Positions 28,815 to 56,809 of a DNA stretch of 64,000 nucleotides are shown piece by piece. Each line of letters begins with the position of its first letter. Positions within the stretch are counted from its first letter, which is position 1. This stretch comes from Candidatus Latescibacterota bacterium (GTDB lineage: Bacteria > Latescibacterota > UBA2968 > GCA-2709665): the NCBI GenBank assembly GCA_965222075.1, contig OZ244937.1, positions 2,464,001 through 2,528,000 on the forward strand. Direction: 5' to 3'. The position numbers and the translations under genes were made by a program. The notes under the pieces are model-generated. The model made no database searches. It had not been told where the DNA came from and was given only the letters and a program-made list of their open reading frames with translations.

Positions 28815-31800
28815 GCTTCAATGAGGCCGCCTGCCTGTGCGGTGCACGCAGACAGGCGATCTAATGACCGCGGAAATAACCGGATACACGGACAGGGGGG
28901 TTAGGGGGGGAATGCTTCAATGAGGCCGCCTGCCTGTGCGGTGCACGCAGACAGGCGATCTAATGACCGCGGAAATGATGGATTCCGATTTCACTCCGGG
29001 GGTGACGCGATACCTGCTTCAATGAGGCCGCGATCTAATGACCGCGGAAATCCGAGGCACATATATCATACCCTGGCAAAAATCGTTGCTTCAATGAGGC
29101 CGCGATCTAATGACCGCGGAAATCCAGATGGACAGCACGGCTCATCGTGGTGGCTATATGCTTCAATGAGGCCGCGATCTAATGACCGCGGAAATGACGC
29201 CCCCGACGACCTCATAAAGAAATTCTACGACGAGCTTCAATGAGGCCGCGATCTAATGACCGCGGAAATGTGGGGTGGCAGCGGGCAAGAGGGGTATGAA
29301 GGCGATGCTTCAATGAGGCCGCGATCTAATGACCGCGGAAATACGAATTCGGATCCGCCTTCGGGGAGCTCGACGTCGCTTCAATGAGGCCGCGATCTAA
29401 TGACCGCAGAAATAGGCTGGGCAAGGGCAAGTCCGGCCCCATCCCTCATATGCTTCAATGAGGCCGCGATCTAATGACCGCGGAAATGTACTTTGGTATT
29501 CTGATTATGGCTTTGTTTCGGGGGCTTCAATGAGGCCGCGATCTAATGACCGCGGAAATGGATATGGACAGGTCAATACGAGAGGCGCTAATCAGGCTTC
29601 AATGAGGCCGCGATCTAATGACCGCGGAAATGGACCGGAAGGTAATCCATGACCGTATCGACAGACACGCTTCAATGAGGCCGCGATCTAATGACCGCGG
29701 AAATCCCACACACCGCCAGCACCCAGGCCGGCCGTCGTGATGCTTCAATGAGGCCGCGATCTAATGACCGCGGAAATCAGGATCACCAGCCGCAATGGGT
29801 ATGCCGGGTTGCCATATTGCTTCAATGAGGCCGCGATCTAATGACCGCGGAAATAAGCACCAGGAAGCACAAGACGCCACCTCCGAGAGGAGCTTCAATG
29901 AGGCCGCGATCTAATGACCGCGGAAATAGGGGTGCTTCGGGCCTTGCTGCCTTGCAACATATAGCTTCAATGAGGCCGCGATCTAATGACCGCGGAAATG
30001 CCCACCAACGCGATGCACACTTTACGCCAGGCATACGGCTTCAATGAGGCCGCGATCTAATGACCGCGGAAATAGGGCGAGGGAGAGGGGGGCGCGAATC
30101 AGTTCACTATGCTTCAATGAGGCCGCGATCTAATGACCGCGGAAATGTCGGGCCGGTGTTCCATGTCGAGCACGGTGCCCCCGCTTCAATGAGGCCGCGA
30201 TCTAATGACCGCGGAAATATGCTATGGTAATCTTTGAGCCGGCGAACGTTAAGTAGCTTCAATGAGGCCGCGATCTAATGACCGCGGAAATCACTTCAGA
30301 CCAGAACGAGAAGACCCGATATGACAAGCTTCAATGAGGCCGCGATCTAATGACCGCGGAAATATAGGTGGCCCCCTCAAGGCTATTCGCCATACCCTGG
30401 CTTCAATGAGGCCGCGATCTAATGACCGCGGAAATCGCTGTCGGGCAACTCACAATGGAGTAACTCTGCCTCGCTTCAATGAGGCCGCGATCTAATGACC
30501 GCGGAAATGACGTGAAATACGGCCTCAGCAACTTCGAGGACAAGACGGCTTCAATGAGGCCGCGATCTAATGACCGCGGAAATTCATCGTATGCCATTTC
30601 AACCCATTTCTCTTGACCTTGCTTCAATGAGGCCGCGATCTAATGACCGCGGAAATCACCCTCAGCCCGGCGGGCGCCGAGCCCTGGCCGTAGGCTTCAA
30701 TGAGGCCGCGATCTAATGACCGCGGAAATTCTTGGGGCCGGAGACGCTGCATCAGCTTCAGTGGTTTGCTTCAATGAGGCCGCGATCTAATGACCGCGGA
30801 AATTACACTATCGGATCGGCAAGCACAACGGGTTTCATTTGCTTCAATGAGGCCGCGATCTAATGACCGCGGAAATGCGGAAATTCTTGCGCTGGTTGCG
30901 TCGTTCCGCGACGTCGCTTCAATGAGGCCGCGATCTAATGACCGCGGAAATAATCTTTGGGGTGCGCCATGCTCACTCTCCGCTCTCGCTTCAATGAGGC
31001 CGCGATCTAATGACCGCGGAAATTTCAATGACGGTGTTCGCGACGGTGCCAAATTTGACGCTTCAATGAGGCCGCGATCTAATGACCGCGGAAATTTGGT
31101 GATTTATCAACTGGCTTTGAGTGACCTATTTCGCTTCAATGAGGCCGCGATCTAATGACCGCGGAAATGTATGGCGTAGAAATCGCCCCGGTGCTGACCA
31201 CCTCGCTTCAATGAGGCCGCGATCTAATGACCGCGGAAATGTGCTGATGGCCGAGACCCTGGAGGCGTGTATCAATCGGCTTCAATGAGGCCGCGATCTA
31301 ATGACCGCGGAAATTCGAAGTCGTCGTCGTCCTTATCGCAGGCGTAAAGGCTTCAATGAGGCCGCGATCTAATGACCGCGGAAATTTAATCTCATTCGCC
31401 GTCTTCGTCAGGCTGTTCAAAGCTTCAATGAGGCCGCGATCTAATGACCGCGGAAATCCTATGGCGTAGACCAGTTTCCCCCTCTGGGCGTCTTGCTTCA
31501 ATGAGGCCGCGATCTAATGACCGCGGAAATATGGCGAAAGCGAAAGCGGAAGCCTTGCATCAAAGCGCTTCAATGAGGCCGCGATCTAATGACCGCGGAA
31601 ATGCAGCTGGGGTCCGTCTCTGAGGTCATCGACAACAAGCTTCAATGAGGCCGCGATCTAATGACCGCGGAAATGCAGCTGGGGTCCGTCTCTGAGGTCA
31701 TCGACAACAAGCTTCAATGAGGCCGCGATCTAATGACCGCGGAAATGCAACCCGAAGCTCCGTTACCGGCGCAAGTCTGACAGGCTTCAATGAGGCCGCG

Positions 31801-32475
31801 ATCTAATGACCGCGGAAATCGTTCTTTGATTCTCTTTCATAACTTCGATCAGATAGCTTCAATGAGGCCGCGATCTAATGACCGCGGAAATGCGCCGGGG
31901 TGGGCCTTAATCCCGCTGAGCTCAAAGATGCTTCAATGAGGCCGCGATCTAATGACCGCGGAAATGCGGCAATTGCGCGCCGACCTTGTACGCCTGTTCC
32001 TTGCTTCAATGAGGCCGCGATCTAATGACCGCGGAAATCATGTTGTATACGGTGAAAAACGGCATCATGATTTGCTTCAATGAGGCCGCGATCTAATGAC
32101 CGCGGAAATGAGCTGGGCGTCGTCACACAGATGCGTGGGGGCCTCCTGCTTCAATGAGGCCGCGATCTAATGACCGCGGAAATAGTAAAAAACTTTGAGG
32201 ACCGAGAGCATGGAACGAAAGCTTCAATGAGGCCGCGATCTAATGACCGCGGAAATGCATAAGGGGCTGATCATGACAAAAGTCTACGTATCAGCTTCAA
32301 TGAGGCCGCGATCTAATGACCGCGGAAATTCTGGGCGCGTATGTTGCACGCAGGGTCCAAAACAGGCTTCAATGAGGCCGCGATCTAATGACCGCGGAAA
32401 TGATCTGAACGAAGAGCGGGCCGAGCGGGACGATACCCTGCTTCAATGAGGCCGCGATCTAATGACCGCGGAAAT
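28815..32475 (-). CRISPR. Type I-G (I-U) CRISPR array, 50 repeats / 49 spacers; repeat ATTTCCGCGGTCATTAGATCGCGGCCTCATTGAAGC
   Basis: 36-bp repeats counted by hand, spacers ~35-41 bp; 3' ATTGAAGC handle; leader on cas1 side; two trailer repeats are 63 bp; one point variant at 29408. Confidence 0.98.
28830..28856. mobile_element. 27-bp palindromic mini-insertion in terminal CRISPR repeat (second copy 28929-28955)
   Basis: CCTGCCTGTGCGGTGCACGCAGACAGG; removal restores exact consensus repeat. Confidence 0.85.
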
Positions 32476-32659: not shown

Positions 32660-34465
32660 TCAGCGCGTTACAAAAACCGGGTACCTGCTCAACTCGCCCT
32701 GAAGCGTTTTGGCGAGCAGACGGGCCTGGATTTCGAGTAATCGCCGATAACTGACACGATAGTCGAAGAGAGGATGCGTAACCAGCGTGTTCATCCGAGC
32801 CTCATACGCGCGGAAGAACCCTTTTCGACCTGCAACCGTCAACGCAACCGCGTTCCCCGAAGACACGAAGTCGCGCTCGGAGACCATCTTTGTGTTCACC
32901 GCGCTGAGCACGGCAGAGTCCACGATCAGGGGACGTAGCGGTTCCATCAGATCTAACGCCAGCGCCGGCCGGCCATGACGCGGCTGATGATAGAAACCGA
33001 TCATCGGATCAAAGCCAACAGCATAGCAGGCAACGGTCAGATCCTTCGTCAGGAGGCTATAGCCGAGCGACAACAGGGCATTGACGGGGTCGCGCGGCGG
33101 CCGGCGATTCCTGGCCTGAAAATTGAAGGAGAACGCCGGATCGCCGTCCCATTCTTCGTCGCGTTTCAACATGCCTCCGAACAACCCGAAATAGATGCGT
33201 GCCGCCCAGCCCTCAAAGCCCAACAGTTCTTCAAGCGACCCGGCCGTTTCCGCTTGACCTACGATCCACGTCAATTCACGCAACACCGCCCTGGACGGTT
33301 CGATGTGATTGCGCCGCAGCATCGTTCGTTGATTGCGAATCTTGCCTGCCACGAGTTGGCGGGCAAGGCGCAGGCAGTACCAGGGTTCGTCGGATAGACG
33401 GAACTGCGCCTGCCGCAAGAAGACGTTCTTCGTGTTGAGCCCGGACGTGACCCCGTAGAACCATCCCCCCTGGGAAAAGTAGCAGATAGGGATCTCCGCC
33501 GTACACAATGCCTGCACGGCCTGCGTGGTCATTTGAACACTGCCCATCAGGCTGACCTGGCAGATCTCGTTGATGCGCACTTCCTGAACCACCTTGTCAC
33601 GCTCTTTGACGCGGAGGACGCCGTTGCTCTTGCCCACGCGCAGTCTATGGGAATTCAAATACAGAGGCTTCTGGTCGGTGCGCGGCGCGACAAGGCGTCG
33701 GACCTCCTGGACCGCAGGTTTCAGGCTTTGTCGCGTGCCATGGAACAAGTCGAGCTGTTCCGCGCCTTCGGGCTCGATGTGAGCTTGCAGATGCCAGGTC
33801 TCATCCGGCATACAGATACCGACCAACGAGCAGCCGGGGCACTTGGGCGAGTCAATGAGTGGCGGCGGTATCTCGATCGCCGCGGCCGTCGTCCACGCCT
33901 CCGCGATGGCTCGCTCGGCTTCGGCGATCGTCTCGTCGTCGAAAGGCACACGCACCCGCTGTCGCGTCTTATGGTAGAAAATGACGCCTTCGTCACAGCA
34001 ATAGCCGTGGGCGCGCAACACGAGCGCCTGGACAGATAGTTGAACGCGGTCGTTGGGCCAGGCTTCCACACCGTGCTCACTGGCCATTGGACGGCCGTGT
34101 TTGTAATCGACCGGCGTGACCCGCCCCTCCGTGAATTCTGCCAAATCCAGCTTGGCGATGACGCGATGTTCTTCCGACGACAGCGTGATTGACCGCACGA
34201 CGACGGGCGCTTCCGATTCTTCACCTGTCTGCGTGCGGTGACGCACAGGCAGGTCGGGCCGGGGCGCCGCCTGTGCTTCCCGGTCGACGCGCTTGTGCTG
34301 GACCGCCCCCTCGGCGGTGTGCTCGTTGTGGACAAAGATACCTTCCACTTGTTCGAAGTAGAACAGCCGCGGGCAATAGACATACTCATTGATCATGCGC
34401 GCGGGGAGATAGTCGGGCAACGGCCGACGGGACGCGTGAAGTTCCTGAGCGGGGGGAGCGCTCAT
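32660..34465 (-). CDS. cas1: Cas4-Cas1 fusion
   Basis: YCPRL, KLD, PVDYK, KCPGCSLVGIC (Cas4); NQRTMLRRN, GFEG, RPPRDPVNALLS, DLMEPLRP (Cas1). Confidence 0.95.
   Translation of the reverse strand: MSAPPAQELHASRRPLPDYLPARMINEYVYCPRLFYFEQVEGIFVHNEHTAEGAVQHKRVDREAQAAPRPDLPVRHRTQTGEESEAPVVVRSITLSSEEHRVIAKLDLAEFTEGRVTPVDYKHGRPMASEHGVEAWPNDRVQLSVQALVLRAHGYCCDEGVIFYHKTRQRVRVPFDDETIAEAERAIAEAWTTAAAIEIPPPLIDSPKCPGCSLVGICMPDETWHLQAHIEPEGAEQLDLFHGTRQSLKPAVQEVRRLVAPRTDQKPLYLNSHRLRVGKSNGVLRVKERDKVVQEVRINEICQVSLMGSVQMTTQAVQALCTAEIPICYFSQGGWFYGVTSGLNTKNVFLRQAQFRLSDEPWYCLRLARQLVAGKIRNQRTMLRRNHIEPSRAVLRELTWIVGQAETAGSLEELLGFEGWAARIYFGLFGGMLKRDEEWDGDPAFSFNFQARNRRPPRDPVNALLSLGYSLLTKDLTVACYAVGFDPMIGFYHQPRHGRPALALDLMEPLRPLIVDSAVLSAVNTKMVSERDFVSSGNAVALTVAGRKGFFRAYEARMNTLVTHPLFDYRVSYRRLLEIQARLLAKTLQGELSRYPVFVTR
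34224..34253. mobile_element. 30-bp palindromic mini-insertion, in frame in cas4 domain
   Basis: CCTGTCTGCGTGCGGTGACGCACAGGCAGG; arms match the element in the CRISPR repeats. Confidence 0.8.
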
Positions 34466-34482
34466 ATTGACTCTCACCTCCA

Positions 34483-34779
<297 letters not shown>

Positions 34780-34875: not shown

Positions 34876-34916
34876 TTACGGAATAACCTCAAAGCCCATC
34901 TGTCGGTAGACCTCAC
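34876..34916 (-). pseudogene. Remnant of VapC/PIN toxin
   Basis: GTG overlaps antitoxin stop (GTGA); YRQMGFEVIP* resembles PIN C-terminus (FxxxGF). Confidence 0.55.
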
Positions 34917-35164
34917 CGGTACAGCACTTCATCGTGCAGTGCGGCAACGTCCCCCGATTCGGATTTACCAACGGCTGGGGCCTGGTACAGCGAATCAGAT
35001 TCCAGTGGCGCGTTTCCGATCGGTGGACTGCCAACCGGGACGATGTCGAAAGCCGGACGACTGCGGTATAGAACGGTAAATCGCTCCCCGCGCCGCACTC
35101 TCTTAACGACATCCTGCAGGCGCTCTCGAAGCTGTTTGGCGCTGATCACCTCTGGCATAGTCAT
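34913..35164 (-). CDS. Phd/YefM-family antitoxin
   Basis: ISAKQLRERLQDVVKRVRRGERFTVLYRSRPAFDIVP; AAGGAG SD. Confidence 0.85.
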   Translation of the reverse strand: MTMPEVISAKQLRERLQDVVKRVRRGERFTVLYRSRPAFDIVPVGSPPIGNAPLESDSLYQAPAVGKSESGDVAALHDEVLYR

Positions 35165-35234: not shown

Positions 35235-36845
35235 TTAATCACGTGCGAACATTCCAAGGCCAAAATGGCAGGCATAGCCAAGAGCTAAGGGTCCCTTAAT
35301 TGGCTCGTTAAAACTCAGGCGCAGCAAGGCCCCTTGCGCGTCGGGTTGTTTCTCTCGCCCCCGCGAACGGAACCGGTGAAAATGGACTGGTCGGCGGGAA
35401 ACACCATGGACCTTGATGTTGCTCAAGATCTCGACTTGAACAGGCCCAGTACGCGAACTGGATGCGATCTCCCGGCGTTTCCAAAGCCGGTTTACCTCGC
35501 CCTCATAGCCAGCCTTTTTCAAATGACCAGCCGCCAAAAAGGGCGTTATGCTGACCCATTCATCGGAACAGCCAAATAGCCTTGATGTATCCGCAAAGTC
35601 CTCCGGGCGGCCAAAGCCCTCCAGGGCCAGCCGCCATTCCTGGCGGCCGCTCTCTTCATCTCCTTCTTCTCCACCGGAATCGTTTCTGCTGACCCACAAT
35701 CGGGTCAAGCGATCCAGCTTCTCGCGCACTGCGGCATCGAAACCTTCCTCTGCGTAAACCGATATGTGGTCAATCCAGCCATCGCCATCGGCGTCCTCGG
35801 GCAGCCAAAAAGCGTGAGAATGCCGACCGTCTCGCAAAGGTTTGTTGTCGGGACCGCGGCCCGAGATCACCGACGGCGCTTTGGGTCTCCTGTTCTTCCA
35901 ACCGAACTTGGAAAGCACGGCCAGCCGCATGAGTTCGCCGATCTTGACTGCGTCCTCAATGCGAGGTAGTGGACGGCCGGCCAGGAGATAGCGCGCTACG
36001 GTGAAACGATTGCGGCCAACGGCGTGGCGACGCGGACTAACATGTCGCGGAACGGGCGACAGCGGCGGACGAATGTAAACGATCTCGCGTGCGGCCGGCG
36101 GCCGATTCCAGCGGTACTTCTGGTAATCGGCCGTATCAAGCGTCAAGGCGTCGGACAAGCGTTCCGGCAAGGTCGGCCCAAACGCCTCGTTGTGCGCCCT
36201 TTCAAGTGCTTTGGGCGTGGGGAGTCTCTTGCCGGAAGCAGCGGCGCGGGAACGCTCTGCATCGTCGGCTTCCTCTAACAGGCGCGTGCGTTCTACGGCA
36301 TAGTCCCTGGCACTGCGCGGCACGAGCAACCGCACCGCTTCCCCGTCAGTGGCCCCATTTTGGCCGACCAGGCGGCAGTTTGTCTCTCCCCCCCAGTCGA
36401 TTGTCGCTTCGCAGTCAACCCAACTCTCGGCACGGCCCAAGTAGCCGATCCCTTCGGCGAGGTCGGCCGCCAAGTCAAAAAGATTTGCGTCCAATTCGAG
36501 TTCCGGCCAAACCGCTACGATCTTCTCGCCTTTGGGAAGGTGTGCGAAGGCGTCGAAGACGAGCGTCGTCTTCACCGGCGCGGGCATGTAGTGCCGGGTA
36601 TGCGCATGGATCGCGCCTTCGGGCAGGTGGTAGATCGGCACATCCTCGGCGAGCGCGTCCATTAGCCGGGCGAGCGCGTCCTCGGACCAGCGCACCCTGT
36701 CTCCCTTACGCCAATAGCTGGCGACGAGCGCCCGGAGAATGCGCCACGGCTCCGGCGGCCAAGCGACATCGGCTTCGTTGACATGGCGTCCCCACGGGGT
36801 GGCGTGATAGCGGCCCGTGGGGAAGCTGAAAGTAAGCGCGAACAT
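35235..36845 (-). CDS. csb2: Type I-G Csb2 (Cas5/Cas6 fusion)
   Basis: GRYHATPWG..VNE..WPPEPWRILRAL, YLGRAESW, GPLALGYACHFGLG. Confidence 0.92.
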   Translation of the reverse strand: MFALTFSFPTGRYHATPWGRHVNEADVAWPPEPWRILRALVASYWRKGDRVRWSEDALARLMDALAEDVPIYHLPEGAIHAHTRHYMPAPVKTTLVFDAFAHLPKGEKIVAVWPELELDANLFDLAADLAEGIGYLGRAESWVDCEATIDWGGETNCRLVGQNGATDGEAVRLLVPRSARDYAVERTRLLEEADDAERSRAAASGKRLPTPKALERAHNEAFGPTLPERLSDALTLDTADYQKYRWNRPPAAREIVYIRPPLSPVPRHVSPRRHAVGRNRFTVARYLLAGRPLPRIEDAVKIGELMRLAVLSKFGWKNRRPKAPSVISGRGPDNKPLRDGRHSHAFWLPEDADGDGWIDHISVYAEEGFDAAVREKLDRLTRLWVSRNDSGGEEGDEESGRQEWRLALEGFGRPEDFADTSRLFGCSDEWVSITPFLAAGHLKKAGYEGEVNRLWKRREIASSSRTGPVQVEILSNIKVHGVSRRPVHFHRFRSRGREKQPDAQGALLRLSFNEPIKGPLALGYACHFGLGMFARD

Positions 36846-36852
36846 TCAAGAC

Positions 36853-40118
<3,266 letters not shown>

Positions 40119-40129
<11 letters not shown>

Positions 40130-42551
40130 ATCCACCATCCAGTTCTTCTTTTGCTGATGCCCGCCAGTCCGCAATACGCACCAGTGCCTCCAGCAAAGCA
40201 AGCCGGAAAGGGCCGTACTGGGAAAGCAAGTGGCGCGTACGCTCGGTCCAACTCGCGCCTGTTTCCGGATGCTCCCCCAACTCCATCACGGATAGTGCGA
40301 GCGGCCCGCCGGACCAGGTTTCCCCATCGCCCAAGTCAACCGGCGGTACCTCATCACCCTCCCACACACCGCGTGCAAAACGGCGGCTACCATCTTCCAT
40401 TGCCGGCCTTTCGGCCGGAAGCGGACGCAAGTTCAGACGCACCTTGCCGTGATGGGCGGCGATCAGGTACGCAACCAGATCCGCCTCACGCACCCAGTCC
40501 GCTTGTGAGAGGATCGCGAGCGCAGACGCCAGCTCGTGCCGGAAATACGCACGTCCTTTCGTCCGGTCGTATTTCGGAGCCTTGGCTAACAACCCCTTCG
40601 GTCTTGAATCGGCCTCCAGATTACTCGCAACCATCCGTGCCTGAAATTCAGGGTGTGCCTTGCCGAGGTCGTGCCAGTACGCTGCCCGCACAATCGCTGC
40701 TTTCCAAGCTTCACAAACGCCGAGGCCATCGCACAGGTGACCAGCTTCAAAAGCCACGTGATCCAGATGGTCCGTCAGGCCCACGAACCCTCCCTGCTCG
40801 CTGTCAGAATCGGCGTCGTTCGACTCGTCTGCTGCCTGTGAGGGCAACTTCGCCGACTCCACGGGCTCGACTGCTGCTTTAATTGTCTGATCGAATCCCG
40901 TTTCCGGCGCGTACCCTCCGGCATTCGCATGAACCAACAATACCAAGCCCGGCCAAGGTGCCTCGCTGAACTCGGTCCAAGCAGGGACCCTGCCCTTACT
41001 TTCAGCTCGTGCCTGCGGGTCTATACGAAACACCCGCTGTCCTTCCTTTTTTCTTACATTCTCAAGCCAATTGCGCGCGCGCCCAATCGGAACCGCACAA
41101 AGCTCGTCCCGCATCGGCGCGGGCTGATCCTCCAGTCCAGTCGAAACGTCGAAATTGCGCCAGAAAACGCGAATATCGGTATCCTCGGCATCGCGGATGT
41201 AGGGAGCGACATCGACATCAAAACCGGTCAAATCTGGATCGGTGTCGTATAGGTCCAGCATATCCCTAGATCGCATCACCCACTGATGGGCGCAATCGTC
41301 GACTGCCGGCGGCACGAGATTGGACGGCCGGGCGTCCGTCAACACAGCAATCCGCTCGCGCCCGATTTTGAGCTCGTCAATCTCATAAGGAGCGGCCAGC
41401 GAATCATCGAGATCGCCACCGCTGAGATCAATCCAGCGGATCCTCCCGCCGCCGGAATCGTTCAATTCTCCGTAGCGGTTCACCCGACCAAACCGCTGGA
41501 CGAGGGACGAGGCGGGCGCGAGTTCGGTGAGCATGACCGCCGCCGAAAGATCGACACCCGCTTCAATCGCCTGCGTCGCAACGACAATCAAGTCTTTCAC
41601 TTCCCCAGGCTCCGGCAGCTTGTCCATCTGCGCTTTGCGGTCTTTGGGCCGAAAGCGCGAGTGAATGAGGGCGAGGCGGGTGGGCGGAATATCCTTTTTC
41701 TGGAGTTCCTTATGCACAGCTTGAGCGCGGGCGACGGTATTGACCACCACGAGCGTCGTGCGGTTCCCTTGGTGCAGATGCAGAGTTTCCTCCGCCAACG
41801 CCGTGGCGTAGGCATCCAGATCGTCTTTCTTGTCGCTCACAGGTGCGACGGGTGTCTGTTGAATCGGCTTGGGCGCGTCAATCAGCTTGCGGACATGCGG
41901 CGATTGCGCGTCTTCGGGGAAATCGTCTGGAACGCGCCAAACTGTCGGACTTTGCTGGAAATCAACCGTGCATAGCCAGTCTGGATGAAGGGTCGCCGAC
42001 ACCCAGAGACTGCGCGAGGCAATCTCCGTCCCCAATTTGCGGCGAAAGCCTTCAAGTTGTGTGGAGGTCGCCAGTCCCGAGCCCATGAGTTGCACCTCGT
42101 CAAAGACCCACTGCGCGTCGTTGTGCAGCAACGCGAAGTCCACCGGCCAGCGGAAGCGGCTCATGGCGTACCCCCGCATCAGGGCGCGACTGAGCAGCAT
42201 GTCTTGTGTCCCAATCAGGATGGCCGGATGCTCGGGGTTTTCAAACCAGCGCGGTTCGTCAATGCCCCCCATCAGGACATGGACTCCGGTTTCGGGATCC
42301 GGCAGGCGCGATTTCCAGTGCATATCTGCTTCGCCCAGCCGTCGCAGCCATTCTCTGACATTCCGCTCCGTCTGGTCAACGAGTGTGCGCATCGGCAGGC
42401 AATAGACGAGGCGACGTGGATCGTATGGCGTCAACATCCGGTAAGTGGCCGAGGCGCCCATTATCCGTTTGAGTTTGGCCATCGAAGGAGTGAGTCCAGT
42501 GTTCTCGCCATCACTCTCCAAAGGCTGCTTCGTGTCGTTGTCGGAGTTCAC
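40119..42551 (-). CDS. cas3: Type I-G Cas3 (SF2 helicase + C-terminal HD nuclease) lacking Walker A
   Basis: GTG after AGGAG; RRLVYCLPMRTLV, DEVQ, SAT, QRFGRVNR; HD motifs HDLGK, RHE, HHG, ADW; no GKT in protein. Confidence 0.9.
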
Positions 42552-42584
42552 GCAATTGCTCCTGTGAGGGTTCGACCCGGTTCC

Positions 42585-42933
42585 CGACGCCAACATGAAC
42601 GCGTCCACGGGAATGAGCCGCTCATTCACGGGGTCAATGCCCAAGCTGAATATCTCCAAAGTGACAGCGCCAAGCAGCGGTTGCACGCAGAACACAACAG
42701 GCGAAATGTCCTCGCGGCCGCAGTCGCATCCAGGTCCTTCCAAAGCCTCGCTCAACGCGGCTGCCATCGGCGAGGACGAACCTCCGGACACTGTGCGGAA
42801 CCACGCCCAAGCGCTCGAGGATCGAAGCCGGAAGGACTGTGCAGGTCGCCCCGGAGTCCACCATGGCTTCGACGGTTTCGTAATGGCGGCCTTCCGGATC
42901 AGCCACCTCGAGCGGCACAATAAACGTACGCAT
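42585..42933 (-). pseudogene. Clan AA (retropepsin-like) aspartic protease, frameshifted
   Basis: AMVDSGAT active site, FVLADG; C-half PLLGAVTLE..LGIDPVNERL in another frame (shift near 42720). Confidence 0.75.
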
Positions 42934-43011: not shown

Positions 43012-44559
43012 TCAAGCCCGCTCTACCTCGAACGCCGTCAGGTTGCGCGCGTCCTTGCTGAACTCCACGGCGACCAGGTAAATCGGCTGGCCCAGGCCTC
43101 GATACTTGTCGGCGTAGCGCTTCTCTTTCAACTGGGCCAGCGCCGCGCCCTCCGGCGTCATTTCCACTACCTTGAACTCGAAGAGGTAGACGTTGTCGTT
43201 GAAGCGAACCGCCATGTCTACGCGGCCGTGGCTGCTGCTGTCCTCCACCGTGATGTCCAGCCCCAGCGCCGCAAAATAGGAGTAGAACACGCTGGCGTAA
43301 TAGCCCTCGTAGCGGGCGATGTCGTTGTTCGTGTACCACTCGTAGGGTATGCTGGCAAAGAAGGCGTGGAATAACGTCTCAAGGCCGGCGAAGTCGTTGG
43401 CCTCCAGCAGCCGGTAGAGCCGGACGCTGTTCGCCATCTGCCGCGATGGGTCCTTCACCAGGTAGCGCAACAGACTCCGGTTCAGGCTCTGCCACACTTC
43501 CCGATTGGGATAGCCGAGGCGATAGACAGGCTCGCCGCCGAGGTCCTCCTCGTCGGTTATCGTGAGGTAGCCGGTCTGGAACAGCAGCGCCTCCGTCGCC
43601 ATATCGTCCACGTCAAAGGTGGACAGCAGATCCCCGCTGCCGACCATGTCATCCAGAGCAAGGGCACTTACCCGGCGCTTGCACAGCGTTTCGACCAGGA
43701 ACGCCGGCGTGCCCGTCTCGAACCACCAGGCACCGAACCTGCGCTTGTCGAAGAGCAGCAGGATGTCGAAGGGGTTGTACATCTTCTCGTCGCCCAGCCA
43801 GCTGTAGCCGTTGTACCAGTCGCGGATCTCGTCCCGGTCGAGGCCGGGGAGCTCCGGCGCGAACACCGTGTCGAGGTCCGCCTCGGTGTAGCCGCAGATA
43901 GCGGAATAGCGCGGGTCGAGGGTGATGTCGATGAGGTTGTTGAGGCCGGAGAACAGGCTGACCTTGGAGAACTTGCTCACTCCGGTAATAAAGGTGAAAC
44001 GGATGTGGGCATCGCTGTCCTTGATCGTCGCATAGAAGCCGCGCAGAAAGTCGCGGTTGGCGCGGGCGACCTCCGGCGTATCCAGTGCGTCCAGGATCGG
44101 CTTGTCGTATTCGTCAATCAACACCACAACGCGCTGACCAACACGCTCGTGCAGCGCCTTGATCAAGTGGCGGAAGCGGGCCGGCGTGGTGTTGTAGCGA
44201 GCAGGGACCGCCGTTTCGTCCCCCAGGGCCTCCAACCGGTCCATCACTTCCGCGCGCAGATCGTCCGGGCGCTGGAAGTTGCCGCTGCCGAAGCTGAGAC
44301 GCAGGACGGGGTGGCGCACCGACCAGTCCCAGTGATCGTGGATGTCCAGCCCCTCGAACAGCGGCTTGTTGCCCTCGAACAGCTCCTTGCACGTGTCCAG
44401 GAACAGGCTCTTGCCGAAGCGCCGCGGGCGCGACAGGAAGTAGTGCTTGCCCTCGTCAAGCAGCCTGCGGATGTAGGCCGTCTTGTCGACATAGTAGCAG
44501 TCCTCCTCGCGGAGCTCGCCGAAGGTCTGCATACCGATGGGTAGTCTGCGTCTGGGCAT
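43012..44559 (-). CDS. AAA-ATPase-like + PD-(D/E)XK nuclease domain protein
   Basis: LPIGMQTF, YYVDKT, SRPRRFGKSL, LIDEYDKP, WYNGY, GRVD..LFEFK..QLKEKRY. Confidence 0.9.
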   Translation of the reverse strand: MPRRRLPIGMQTFGELREEDCYYVDKTAYIRRLLDEGKHYFLSRPRRFGKSLFLDTCKELFEGNKPLFEGLDIHDHWDWSVRHPVLRLSFGSGNFQRPDDLRAEVMDRLEALGDETAVPARYNTTPARFRHLIKALHERVGQRVVVLIDEYDKPILDALDTPEVARANRDFLRGFYATIKDSDAHIRFTFITGVSKFSKVSLFSGLNNLIDITLDPRYSAICGYTEADLDTVFAPELPGLDRDEIRDWYNGYSWLGDEKMYNPFDILLLFDKRRFGAWWFETGTPAFLVETLCKRRVSALALDDMVGSGDLLSTFDVDDMATEALLFQTGYLTITDEEDLGGEPVYRLGYPNREVWQSLNRSLLRYLVKDPSRQMANSVRLYRLLEANDFAGLETLFHAFFASIPYEWYTNNDIARYEGYYASVFYSYFAALGLDITVEDSSSHGRVDMAVRFNDNVYLFEFKVVEMTPEGAALAQLKEKRYADKYRGLGQPIYLVAVEFSKDARNLTAFEVERA

Positions 44560-44673
44560 GGGCACGTTACTCCAGGCACCGGGCGATGTAATCCTTAACC
44601 AGTTCCGTTTGGGCTGCACTGCGAACGGAGCCCGTTTTCCGTACTTGACGAATCCGGAATCGCAGCACCTTTC

Positions 44674-44814: not shown

Positions 44815-46449
<1,635 letters not shown>

Positions 46450-54682: not shown

Positions 54683-56809
54683 ATGGACAGTCAAACCGCC
54701 ATCCTTGCCGTCGAACTCATCGGCGGCAACCAGATGGTCTTCTACACCCAGGACGGGCAGTACACGCAACCCTTCTCTCCCTGGCTGCTTGTGGAAGCCC
54801 CCGAGGACTGCAACCGCGCCGGGCTCTCCGGCATCCGCGAGGTCGTTTCCCTCAAAGGGGGGGGAGAATTTCGCTTTCGCGCCCATTTCCACACCTGGTC
54901 CGACTTCTTAGAGGCGAAAGGGCGCCTCTCTGAAGACGGCATCGCCCACTTCAGCATCAACACCCCCGTCCGCCAGCACCTCCTTCTCTCCGGTCAGACC
55001 CTCTTTTACAAGATGAGATACGCTGAGGCCCACCGCCTCCAGCTCGACATCGAAACCCTCACCCTGCACCCGCAGGCCCCCGGTGCCGAAATCATCCTCA
55101 TCGCCCTCTCCGATACCTGTGGCTACGAAGAGATCCTCAATGGTCAGGACATGTCCGAAACCGAACTCTTACAGCAACTCAACCAGCGTATCGCCGATCG
55201 CAACCCCGACGTGATCGAAGGCCACAACATCTTCGATTTCGACCTGTTCTATATCAGCGCCCGGGCCGACCGCCTGAAGGTGCCCCTTACCTGGGGCCGC
55301 GATGCATCCCAGCTCAAAGTCGGTCACGGCACGCGCCGCTACAAAGTCGGCGCCCACAACCCCCTCTTCCGCCCCGCCTACATCCACGGCCGCCACATCA
55401 TCGACACCCTGCAACAGGTCCGGCGCTACGACGTGGGCGGACGCCTGGAAAGCTATGGCCTCAAAAATGCCATCCGGGTCCTGGGCCTGGAGCGGAAAGG
55501 CCGGGTCTTTGTGGAAGGCAAAGACATCCCCCGGCTCTGGCGGGAAGACCCGGACCGCCTCACCGAATACGCCCTGGACGACGTCCGCGACGTCCGTGTG
55601 CTCAGCGAACGCGTCGTTTCCACCGAATTCTACCAGACCCAGATCCTCCCCTACAGTTTCCAGGACACGGCCATCACCGGTCCCGGCGAAAAGATCAACG
55701 CCCTCATGGTCGGGGCATACCTTCGCCGCAACCTCGCCATCCCCCGCGCCCGCGCCTCCAAATCGTTCGGGGGAGGCTACACGCAGCTCTTCGCCTCCGG
55801 CATCTTCAAACGGGTCGTCAAGGCCGATGTCGAAAGCCTCTACCCCTCCATCATGCTTACCTACGGCATTCGCCCCACCGCCGATACCGAAAACGCCTTT
55901 CTCCCCATGCTGAAACGCCTCACCCGGCGGCGGCTTGAAGCCAAAGCCCACTACCAGGAGGGCGCAAACGAAGCCGAAGAGACCTACTGGGACGGCCTGC
56001 AAAGCAGCTACAAGGTCCTCATCAACGCCTTCTATGGCTACCTCGCTTACGGTCGTGCGAATTTTAACGACTACAAAGCCGCCGAACAGGTCACCGCGAT
56101 GGGTCAGGAGATCGCCCGACAGCTTGTGACACAACTCCGGAATAGGGGTGCGGAGATCATCGAAGTAGACACCGACGGCGTCTACTTTGTCGTCCCCTCC
56201 CGAATCGACACCGAAAAGGGTGAACATCGGTTCATCGAAGAGATCTCCGAGGAACTCCCCAAGGGCATCCATCTCTCCCACGACGGCCGCTACCGGGGCA
56301 TGATCAGCCTGAAGACCAAGAACTACATCCTGATCGGATATGACGATGTCTTAACGGTCAAAGGCAGCAGCCTTCGAAGCCGGCGCGATGAACGGATTTT
56401 TCGGAGCTTTATCAAACAGCTTGCATATCTGCTCATCGACAGAAAAACGGAAGAGGCCTCGGCTTACTACCTCGGCCTCGCCGGACGCCTTCAGGAAGGC
56501 CAGGTCCCTCCGAAGAACTTCTGCCGTTGGGAGAGCATCACCGAAAAGACCTTCTCCAACCCGAATCTCCGCCGTCTGGCCGCAGCGGCAAAAGGCGGCA
56601 AAATAGGCGAAAAAATTGCCGTCTACCAGAAACGCGACGGGAGCCTTGCCCGGATCGAAACCTATGCGGAAGACGAAGACCGGGACTATCTCCTCCGGAG
56701 GCTACACGACATGGCCGGACGCTTTCGAAGCCTCTTTGGCGATGCCGAATTCCGCCGCCTCTTCCCCCTGGTACAGAAACCCGCCGAAGAACAGCTCAGC
56801 CTGTTTTGA
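54683..56809 (+). CDS. Family B DNA polymerase with 3'-5' exonuclease
   Basis: LDIET, GHNIFDFD, YALDD; DVESLYPS, KVLINAFYG, DTDG. Confidence 0.9.
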   Translation: MDSQTAILAVELIGGNQMVFYTQDGQYTQPFSPWLLVEAPEDCNRAGLSGIREVVSLKGGGEFRFRAHFHTWSDFLEAKGRLSEDGIAHFSINTPVRQHLLLSGQTLFYKMRYAEAHRLQLDIETLTLHPQAPGAEIILIALSDTCGYEEILNGQDMSETELLQQLNQRIADRNPDVIEGHNIFDFDLFYISARADRLKVPLTWGRDASQLKVGHGTRRYKVGAHNPLFRPAYIHGRHIIDTLQQVRRYDVGGRLESYGLKNAIRVLGLERKGRVFVEGKDIPRLWREDPDRLTEYALDDVRDVRVLSERVVSTEFYQTQILPYSFQDTAITGPGEKINALMVGAYLRRNLAIPRARASKSFGGGYTQLFASGIFKRVVKADVESLYPSIMLTYGIRPTADTENAFLPMLKRLTRRRLEAKAHYQEGANEAEETYWDGLQSSYKVLINAFYGYLAYGRANFNDYKAAEQVTAMGQEIARQLVTQLRNRGAEIIEVDTDGVYFVVPSRIDTEKGEHRFIEEISEELPKGIHLSHDGRYRGMISLKTKNYILIGYDDVLTVKGSSLRSRRDERIFRSFIKQLAYLLIDRKTEEASAYYLGLAGRLQEGQVPPKNFCRWESITEKTFSNPNLRRLAAAAKGGKIGEKIAVYQKRDGSLARIETYAEDEDRDYLLRRLHDMAGRFRSLFGDAEFRRLFPLVQKPAEEQLSLF

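Follow-up and report, generated by a model that had tools for sequence, protein, structure and literature searches.

Introduction

Can a type I-G CRISPR-Cas system whose Cas3 has lost the ATP-binding motif of its helicase still carry out interference, and how did such a cas3 gene arise? These questions are raised by a locus in a 64,000-nucleotide stretch of DNA from a Candidatus Latescibacterota bacterium (GenBank assembly GCA_965222075.1, contig OZ244937.1, positions 2,464,001 to 2,528,000 of the forward strand). This whole stretch is referred to as the window; unless a related locus is named, positions are those of the window, and (−) and (+) denote its strands. An earlier reading of the same sequence, here called the original prediction, attributed the missing motif to a clean in-frame loss inside Cas3. 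Our analysis points to a different event. A single deletion at the 5′ end of cas3 probably generated an in-frame chimera with an upstream gene, in which Cas3 is most likely dead and interference lost or weakened; the event would be very recent and strain-level.

Results

The cas3 open reading frame lacks the Q motif and Walker A

On the minus strand, the sequence ending in YRMLTPYD runs straight into PRRLVYCLPMR, the join lying between positions 42421 and 42420. The open reading frame (ORF) that contains cas3 spans 40119..42920 (−) and encodes 933 residues, among which the pattern GK[TS] does not occur. Both the direct join and the absence of GKT from the ORF had been noted in the original prediction and were borne out. 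The pattern G..GK[TS] was likewise absent from all minus-strand frames between 38000 and 47000; its sole match within these limits, at 46131, lies on the plus strand and is antisense to groEL.

The protein matched the NCBIfam model TIGR02621 with 680.7 bits, above the curated cutoff of 400, and is a member of that family minus its N-terminal end: the match covers only profile positions 66-854 of 854. Similarly, the match to the PADLOC Cas3g model PDLC01770 (E 2.5e-246) begins at profile position 56 of 733, and that to the Pfam DEAD model at position 43 of 167. A divergent Walker A, one of the findings that had been named as contradicting a true loss, was rejected: the three family models all start matching downstream of the missing part.

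The other hallmarks of a type I-G Cas3 are present. Pfam detected Cas3-like_C_2, Helicase_C, Cas3_HD and DEAD in the ORF. DEVQ, QRFGRVNR and the HD dyad are all retained, and the columns of motif II (the DExH box) and motif VI are invariant in our alignment of homologues (A3). The HD nuclease occupies the C-terminal position found in Cas3g proteins (Pfam Cas3_HD at residues 737-924 and TIGR01596 at residues 715-923 of the 933-residue ORF). Missing are the Q motif and motif I (Walker A, PTGxGKT) that belong to a type I-G Cas3. In alignment A3, Walker A is invariant in all 58 aligned full-length Cas3g homologues.

A 5′ deletion fused cas3 to an upstream small ORF

The window was compared by blastn and MAFFT with four loci, L001-L004, the closest (82-84% protein identity) of 80 related loci obtained from a scan of species-representative genomes. 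L001, L003 and L004 are labelled Latescibacteria or Latescibacterota and L002 Gemmatimonadota; all four are metagenome-assembled. In these alignments, window position 42421 lies opposite locus position ~9913 and window position 42420 opposite locus position 10180, and both flanks are collinear with L001-L004. The DNA absent at the junction (42420..42421) amounts to 266 bp relative to L001, 269 bp relative to L002, 273 bp relative to L003 and 266 bp relative to L004, so that the alignment with type I-G loci that had been proposed to size the deletion gives 266-273 bp.

The missing stretch comprises the last ~25 codons of a small ORF upstream of cas3, the intergenic spacer with the cas3 ribosome-binding site, and cas3 codons 1-59. 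The native cas3 ATG, at locus position 10001 in the relatives, was removed with it. The lost codons hold the Q motif FAYQQ and the Walker A motif PTGLGKT, as in P0002, an intact homologue described below. What remains of cas3g spans 40119..42420 (−): one base of codon 59, its third, then codons 60-825 and a stop codon at 40119-40121.

The residues that precede the join are not part of Cas3. The corresponding stretch of the window aligns with L001 9779-9913, L003 9755-9906 and the equivalent stretches of L002 and L004, all upstream of the cas3 ATG at 10001. Because the first 44 residues of the fused frame align to this upstream small ORF, LTPYD, which had been taken as Cas3, belongs to the small ORF. 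An internal in-frame deletion within Cas3 was rejected for the same reason, as L001-L004 encode the counterparts of these residues in an ORF of their own ahead of cas3. The region first singled out, 42380-42551, covers the small-ORF remnant and the first post-junction Cas3 codons. What the original prediction called a clean in-frame loss inside Cas3 is thus a 5′ deletion of 266-273 bp accompanied by gene fusion. It was right that the reading frame stays open, but the segment lost did not lie between two parts of Cas3.

Displacement of the N-terminus to another place or another frame was also considered and rejected. When residues 1-80 of P0002 were searched against the 64-kb window with tblastn, the only significant match was that of residues 60-80, at 42419. 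The next-best match spanned 33 residues at 36% identity (19352-19450) and fell inside a pyruvate phosphate dikinase gene. Residues 1-59 were unmatched in the window, and no P-loop was present in the other minus-strand frames. Considered as a pseudogene, the remnant has lost its native start, its ribosome-binding site and an essential motif; its frame is not broken by any frameshift or stop, remaining open from the GTG at 42551 to the stop at 40119.

The small ORF encodes 68-70 residues in L001-L004 (9789-9992 in L001; 9776-9985 in L003) and ends 8-15 nucleotides before the start of cas3. It precedes cas3 in 9 of the 80 type I-G loci (L001-L004, L011, L012, L059, L067 and L077). Its family comprises 33 clusters in a 90%-clustered set and 186 representatives in a 50%-clustered set, with the near-invariant core LTPS..KLK...G.S....LTPYEI.LLR (family alignment A4). 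The copy in the window is cut right after LTPY, and the near-invariant EI.LLR helix is lost. Searches with the small ORF returned no Pfam family above cutoff, no PADLOC hit and no name from any source. Judged by its sequence conservation, the small ORF is a real, conserved and uncharacterised family. Of 24 representatives scanned, two carry it joined to domains characteristic of toxin-antitoxin systems, namely the MqsA antitoxin (P0199) and DUF2442 (P0264).

An intact allele, related loci and the reality of the deletion

The top match to the Cas3 part in a large public protein set was P0002, a protein of 825 residues encoded on a different contig (20,955 bp). Residues 168-933 of the window ORF correspond to residues 60-825 of P0002 and are identical at 766 of 766 positions; by tblastn, P0002 matched window 42419-40122 at 100%. 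Relative to this intact allele, there is no change in the C-terminal HD nuclease domain or in motifs Ia, II (DEVQ) and VI of the helicase, in agreement with the claim that these motifs and the HD residues are kept. The N-terminal 59 residues of P0002 are normal and include FAYQQ and PTGLGKT. A cas3 N-terminus with G.GK[TS] is also encoded in all 80 related loci. The absence of any difference over 766 residues indicates that the event is very recent, or present only in this assembly. The alternative offered in the original prediction, that the locus was recently attenuated, is the best fit to the identical intact P0002 and to the universal presence of the N-terminus in the related loci.

Beyond these loci, PTG.GK[TS] was present in 112 of 120 cluster representatives of Cas3g homologues. 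The eight representatives without it are P0037, P0038, P0043, P0044, P0086, P0108, P0113 and P0117. P0044, P0086 and P0117 start at a Met equivalent to M69, just past the breakpoint in the window; P0038 and P0113 start at the equivalent of M109, and P0037, P0043 and P0108 later. Some of the eight may be contig-end fragments. Three of them come from contigs between 80 kb and 1.4 Mb long, which suggests that 5′-damaged cas3g genes recur at a low rate.

No fusion of the small ORF to Cas3 was found among proteins longer than the small ORF, the one match, P0155, not being a Cas3, and none was present among the best 150 of the 186 family representatives, the longest of which has 553 residues. The proposed search for the same allele in other genomes therefore yielded no fusion among clustered representatives, although clustering at 90% could conceal the chimera of the window under P0002.

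A different product of this region is P0137, a 95-residue protein from a 2,401-bp contig and one of 11 clustered sequences. In it, small-ORF residues 6-58 are followed by the C-terminal tail of a Phd-like ORF. The two parts correspond to window 42420-42503 and 35032-34919, and in L003 and L004 the Phd-like ORF lies ~7.6 kb downstream. The protein sequence of P0137 implies one independent deletion of the whole interference module (cas3, cas8g, cas7g and csb2), starting in the small ORF, in another population.

The intact allele also bears on whether the deletion is real. It might instead be an error in the assembly or its consensus, or a structural variant carried by a minority, the cas3 of the population having the intact P0002 form. 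The junction is known from the assembled sequence, an allele 100% identical over 766 residues exists in intact form on another contig, and the closest genomes are metagenome-assembled. We nevertheless consider this explanation unlikely. Consensus errors do not typically take the form of a clean 266-273 bp loss between collinear flanks. Other genes in the window cover their Pfam models in full, indicating that the assembly is not riddled with indels, and the neighbouring retropepsin-like gene has independent lesions, described below. Finally, the larger deletion in P0137 also starts from the small ORF, which argues that real deletions occur here.

Start signals and probable expression of the chimera

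The predicted chimera comprises 810 residues in one open frame: 44 from the small ORF, followed by Cas3 residues 60-825. The 5′ part of the small ORF, 42421..42551 (−), contributes 43 codons and 2 bases, with a GTG start at 42551-42549, and is fused in frame to cas3. A hybrid GAT codon (D) straddles the junction and combines the 2 small-ORF bases with the third base of cas3 codon 59. The small ORF and cas3 are in different frames, and the length of the deletion compensates for this difference, yielding an in-frame chimera.

A Shine-Dalgarno-like AGGAG, read from the sequence, is located at 42559..42563 (−), 7 nucleotides upstream of the small-ORF GTG. The same AGGAG precedes the ATG in L003. 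The element in the window is likely the translation start signal of the chimera, whose transcription and translation probably continue under the small-ORF signals. At the other end of the gene, the likely start of cas8g is the ATG at 40138 or 40129, either of which would overlap the 3′ end of cas3. Given this overlap and the in-frame fusion, expression of Cascade is probably undisturbed: cas8g and the rest of the operon downstream are probably not cut off by the fusion.

Genes upstream of the fusion

Immediately upstream lies a gene for a retropepsin-like aspartyl protease. Its N-terminal frame, 42634..42933 (−), encodes a DSGA motif (Pfam Asp_protease_2, E 2e-6) and ends at a premature stop after a frameshift; the tblastn alignment of P0155, an intact homologue of 203 residues, switches frame at ~42720. 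The C-terminal part of the gene, 42552..42719 (−), shares the frame of the small ORF and cas3 without an intervening stop, which is why the longest ORF reaches 42920. This C-terminal part is also 3 codons shorter in the window than in P0155 and P0153. The frameshift and the 3-codon loss suggest, at the sequence level, real local decay. In P0155 and P0125, the protease reads without a stop into an intact small ORF.

The next gene, 43012..44619 (−), encodes an AAA-ATPase_like and PDDEXK_9 protein according to Pfam. It is syntenic with L004, matching L004 7629-9197 by blastn and aligning at 80% over residues 21-535 by tblastn, and is followed further upstream by groEL and groES.

The remainder of the type I-G locus

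Beside cas3, the locus contains the genes of a type I-G system, cas8g/csx17, cas7g/csb1, csb2, cas4-cas1 and cas2, together with a CRISPR array. The cas8g/csx17 ORF as listed, 37799..40201 (−), matched TIGR04113 with 533.9 bits over profile positions 1-715 of 718 and is collinear with L001 and L004 over residues 4-800. That of cas7g/csb1, listed as 36853..38001 (−), matched PF09617 and TIGR02570 and is collinear with L001-L003; its true start is probably further downstream than that of the listed ORF. The Cas5/Cas6-like gene csb2, 35235..36845 (−), matched TIGR02165 over profile positions 1-490 of 492 and shares 80-89% identity with L001-L004 over residues 1-535. These three genes are intact and collinear with their relatives, as expected from the complete Cascade of the original prediction.

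The adaptation genes follow. cas2 spans 34483..34773 (−) (Pfam CRISPR_Cas2, E 7e-19), and a cas4-cas1 fusion spans 32660..34483 (−) (NF049935, 740.2 bits, profile positions 1-546 of 546). A small ORF resembling Phd/YefM antitoxins, 34913..35164 (−), separates csb2 from cas2 within the cas operon. Its match to Pfam PhdYeFM_antitox (E 2.6e-4) is below the curated cutoff, and it is 89% identical in L003 and L004. No toxin partner was seen adjacent to it.

The CRISPR array, 28815..32475 (−), contains 48 canonical 36-nucleotide repeats and two variant repeats at its far end, for a total of 50 repeats and the 49 spacers previously reported. The minus-strand repeat forms an 8-bp hairpin, indicating that the array is read in the direction of the cas genes, with the leader beside cas1. 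The variant repeats, 28815-28877 and 28914-28976, form the old end of the array and are mutually identical. Each has a 27-nucleotide palindromic insertion in the stem, which extends the hairpin (−25.4 kcal/mol, minus strand). In addition, the neighbouring spacers at 31603-31638 and 31675-31710 are identical, corresponding to a duplicated spacer-repeat unit.

A self-targeting spacer was considered as a reason for inactivation and rejected. With the array masked and the two spacers beside the variant repeats left out, the longest exact match of 47 of the 49 spacers to the 64-kb window, the scope of this comparison, was 14 nucleotides, which is at chance level. The spacers gave one 16-nucleotide match to the 80 loci. 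The whole array gave no hit to phage and plasmid collections in megablast mode, which requires 28 exact bases.

Elsewhere in the window, 7440-11429 (+) encodes a 1329-residue protein composed almost wholly of leucine-rich repeats, preceded at 4915-7464 by further ORFs with leucine-rich repeats and immunoglobulin (Ig) domains. A family B DNA polymerase-like gene, with Pfam DNA_pol_B and its exonuclease domain, is located at 54683-56809 (+) in an otherwise housekeeping neighbourhood.

Discussion

In the sequence of events that we favour, one deletion of ~266-273 bp would have struck the 5′ end of a type I-G cas3 and joined the small ORF to Cas3 residue 60, creating an 810-residue product. Lacking a P-loop, the chimera would neither bind nor hydrolyse ATP and hence would not translocate. 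In SF2 helicases, motif I lies between the first strand and the first helix of the first RecA domain. With this strand and helix lost, the chimera would most likely be misfolded or unstable. A point mutation is far milder than the exchange of 59 residues for 44 foreign ones, which makes a misfolded, dead protein more probable than a working nickase. Interference would be lost or strongly weakened, while the capacity for Cascade assembly and CRISPR RNA (crRNA) processing and the adaptation genes would remain.

Point mutants have been characterized in the type I-G system of Thioalkalivibrio sulfidiphilus, in which Cas3 is a constitutive subunit of Cascade (PMC9638904, PMC10482374). Cas3g variants substituted in Walker A (K39A) or Walker B (D164A) are described as leaving the target bound and nicked and not degraded, and as protecting against a plasmid only at full induction and still against phage P1 (PMC9638904, PMC10482374). 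The K39A result (PMC9638904, PMC10482374) and knowledge of SF2 helicases both lend support to the term ATPase-dead in the original prediction.

Several points weigh against the interpretation of a dead Cas3 produced by a recent deletion. There was no microhomology at the breakpoints (0 nucleotides in each of the four relatives). The fusion is in frame, which has a one-in-three chance, and retains a Shine-Dalgarno sequence and a start codon, as expected of a selected, expressed variant. Misfolding is inferred from general knowledge of SF2 helicases. Moreover, as K39A and D164A are reported to nick and protect, loss of the ATPase is by itself not proof that immunity is lost. In addition, all comparators are metagenome-assembled genomes, the intact and 100% identical P0002 could even stem from the same population, and the small probability of an assembly error or a minority variant stands as given above.

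Some of these points agree with another account, the principal one in the original prediction, in which the deletion is real and the helicase-less chimera works within Cascade, its HD domain nicking the displaced strand at the R-loop and providing weaker immunity or silencing. The in-frame fusion keeps AGGAG and GTG, there is no change in the HD domain or in helicase motifs Ia-VI, and all Cascade genes are intact. The described behaviour of K39A and D164A Cas3g, which nick and still protect against phage P1, and against a plasmid if fully induced, fits as well (PMC9638904, PMC10482374). We judge such a function quite unlikely. The laboratory mutants keep their fold, whereas here 59 residues are replaced by 44 unrelated ones, and the lost segment is kept in 80 of 80 related loci. 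The fusion was found neither among longer proteins containing the small ORF nor among the best 150 family representatives, so the architecture is not recurrent, and the zero divergence since the event gives no sign of maintenance by selection. The mode of action envisaged in the original prediction, binding and silencing or nicking, rests on point mutants that preserve the fold and does not carry over readily to an allele that has lost a strand, the P-loop and a helix.

An extension of this account is highly doubtful: that the chimera is expressed and bound to Cascade as a natural RNA-guided nickase or roadblock, a counterpart in the wild of K39A, and that, taken with P0137, it reflects recurrent down-tuning of interference at the breakpoint region in the small ORF.

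Provided that the deletion is real and that Cas3 is, as we think probable, inactive, the locus offers a snapshot of a CRISPR-Cas system as its interference arm is disabled, while Cascade, the genes for adaptation and the array of 49 spacers are still intact. The allele of the window and its intact sister P0002 form a natural pair with which to ask whether loss of the Cas3 motor is tolerated in type I-G systems and how such loci decay. The analysis also corrects the annotation, in that the first 44 residues of the chimera are not Cas3 and belong to the uncharacterised small-ORF family.

Comparison with known systems

The closest characterized counterpart is Cas3g of T. sulfidiphilus (PMC9638904, PMC10482374). 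It belongs to the same TIGR02621 family as the window protein, with the helicase first and the HD domain at the C-terminus, and its system has the same partners (cas8g/csx17, cas7g/csb1, csb2, cas4-cas1 and cas2). Unlike T. sulfidiphilus Cas3g, the Cas3 of the window lacks profile positions 1-65 and its own start and carries 44 foreign N-terminal residues. It resembles K39A and D164A, which nick at the R-loop and retain immunity in part, in that ATP-dependent translocation is expected to be lost with the HD site untouched. It differs from them in that they are single substitutions in a full-length, folded protein, whereas the window allele is without 59 residues of the first RecA domain. The difference from P0002 is confined to that end: the two are identical at 766 of 766 positions, and P0002 alone has the 59-residue N-terminus.

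Gene decay by deletion is in itself ordinary. Natural decay is known for cas genes, and a truncated cas3 has reportedly been described in E. coli strains. Derivatives of type I systems that lack Cas3 are also known, for example CRISPR-associated transposons and type IV systems. The locus in the window resembles these in having Cascade and an array without a working Cas3 helicase. In CRISPR-associated transposons and type IV systems, however, cas3 is wholly absent and partner genes with new functions are present. In the window, by contrast, no new partner was seen, cas3 is only damaged, and the adaptation genes have been kept.

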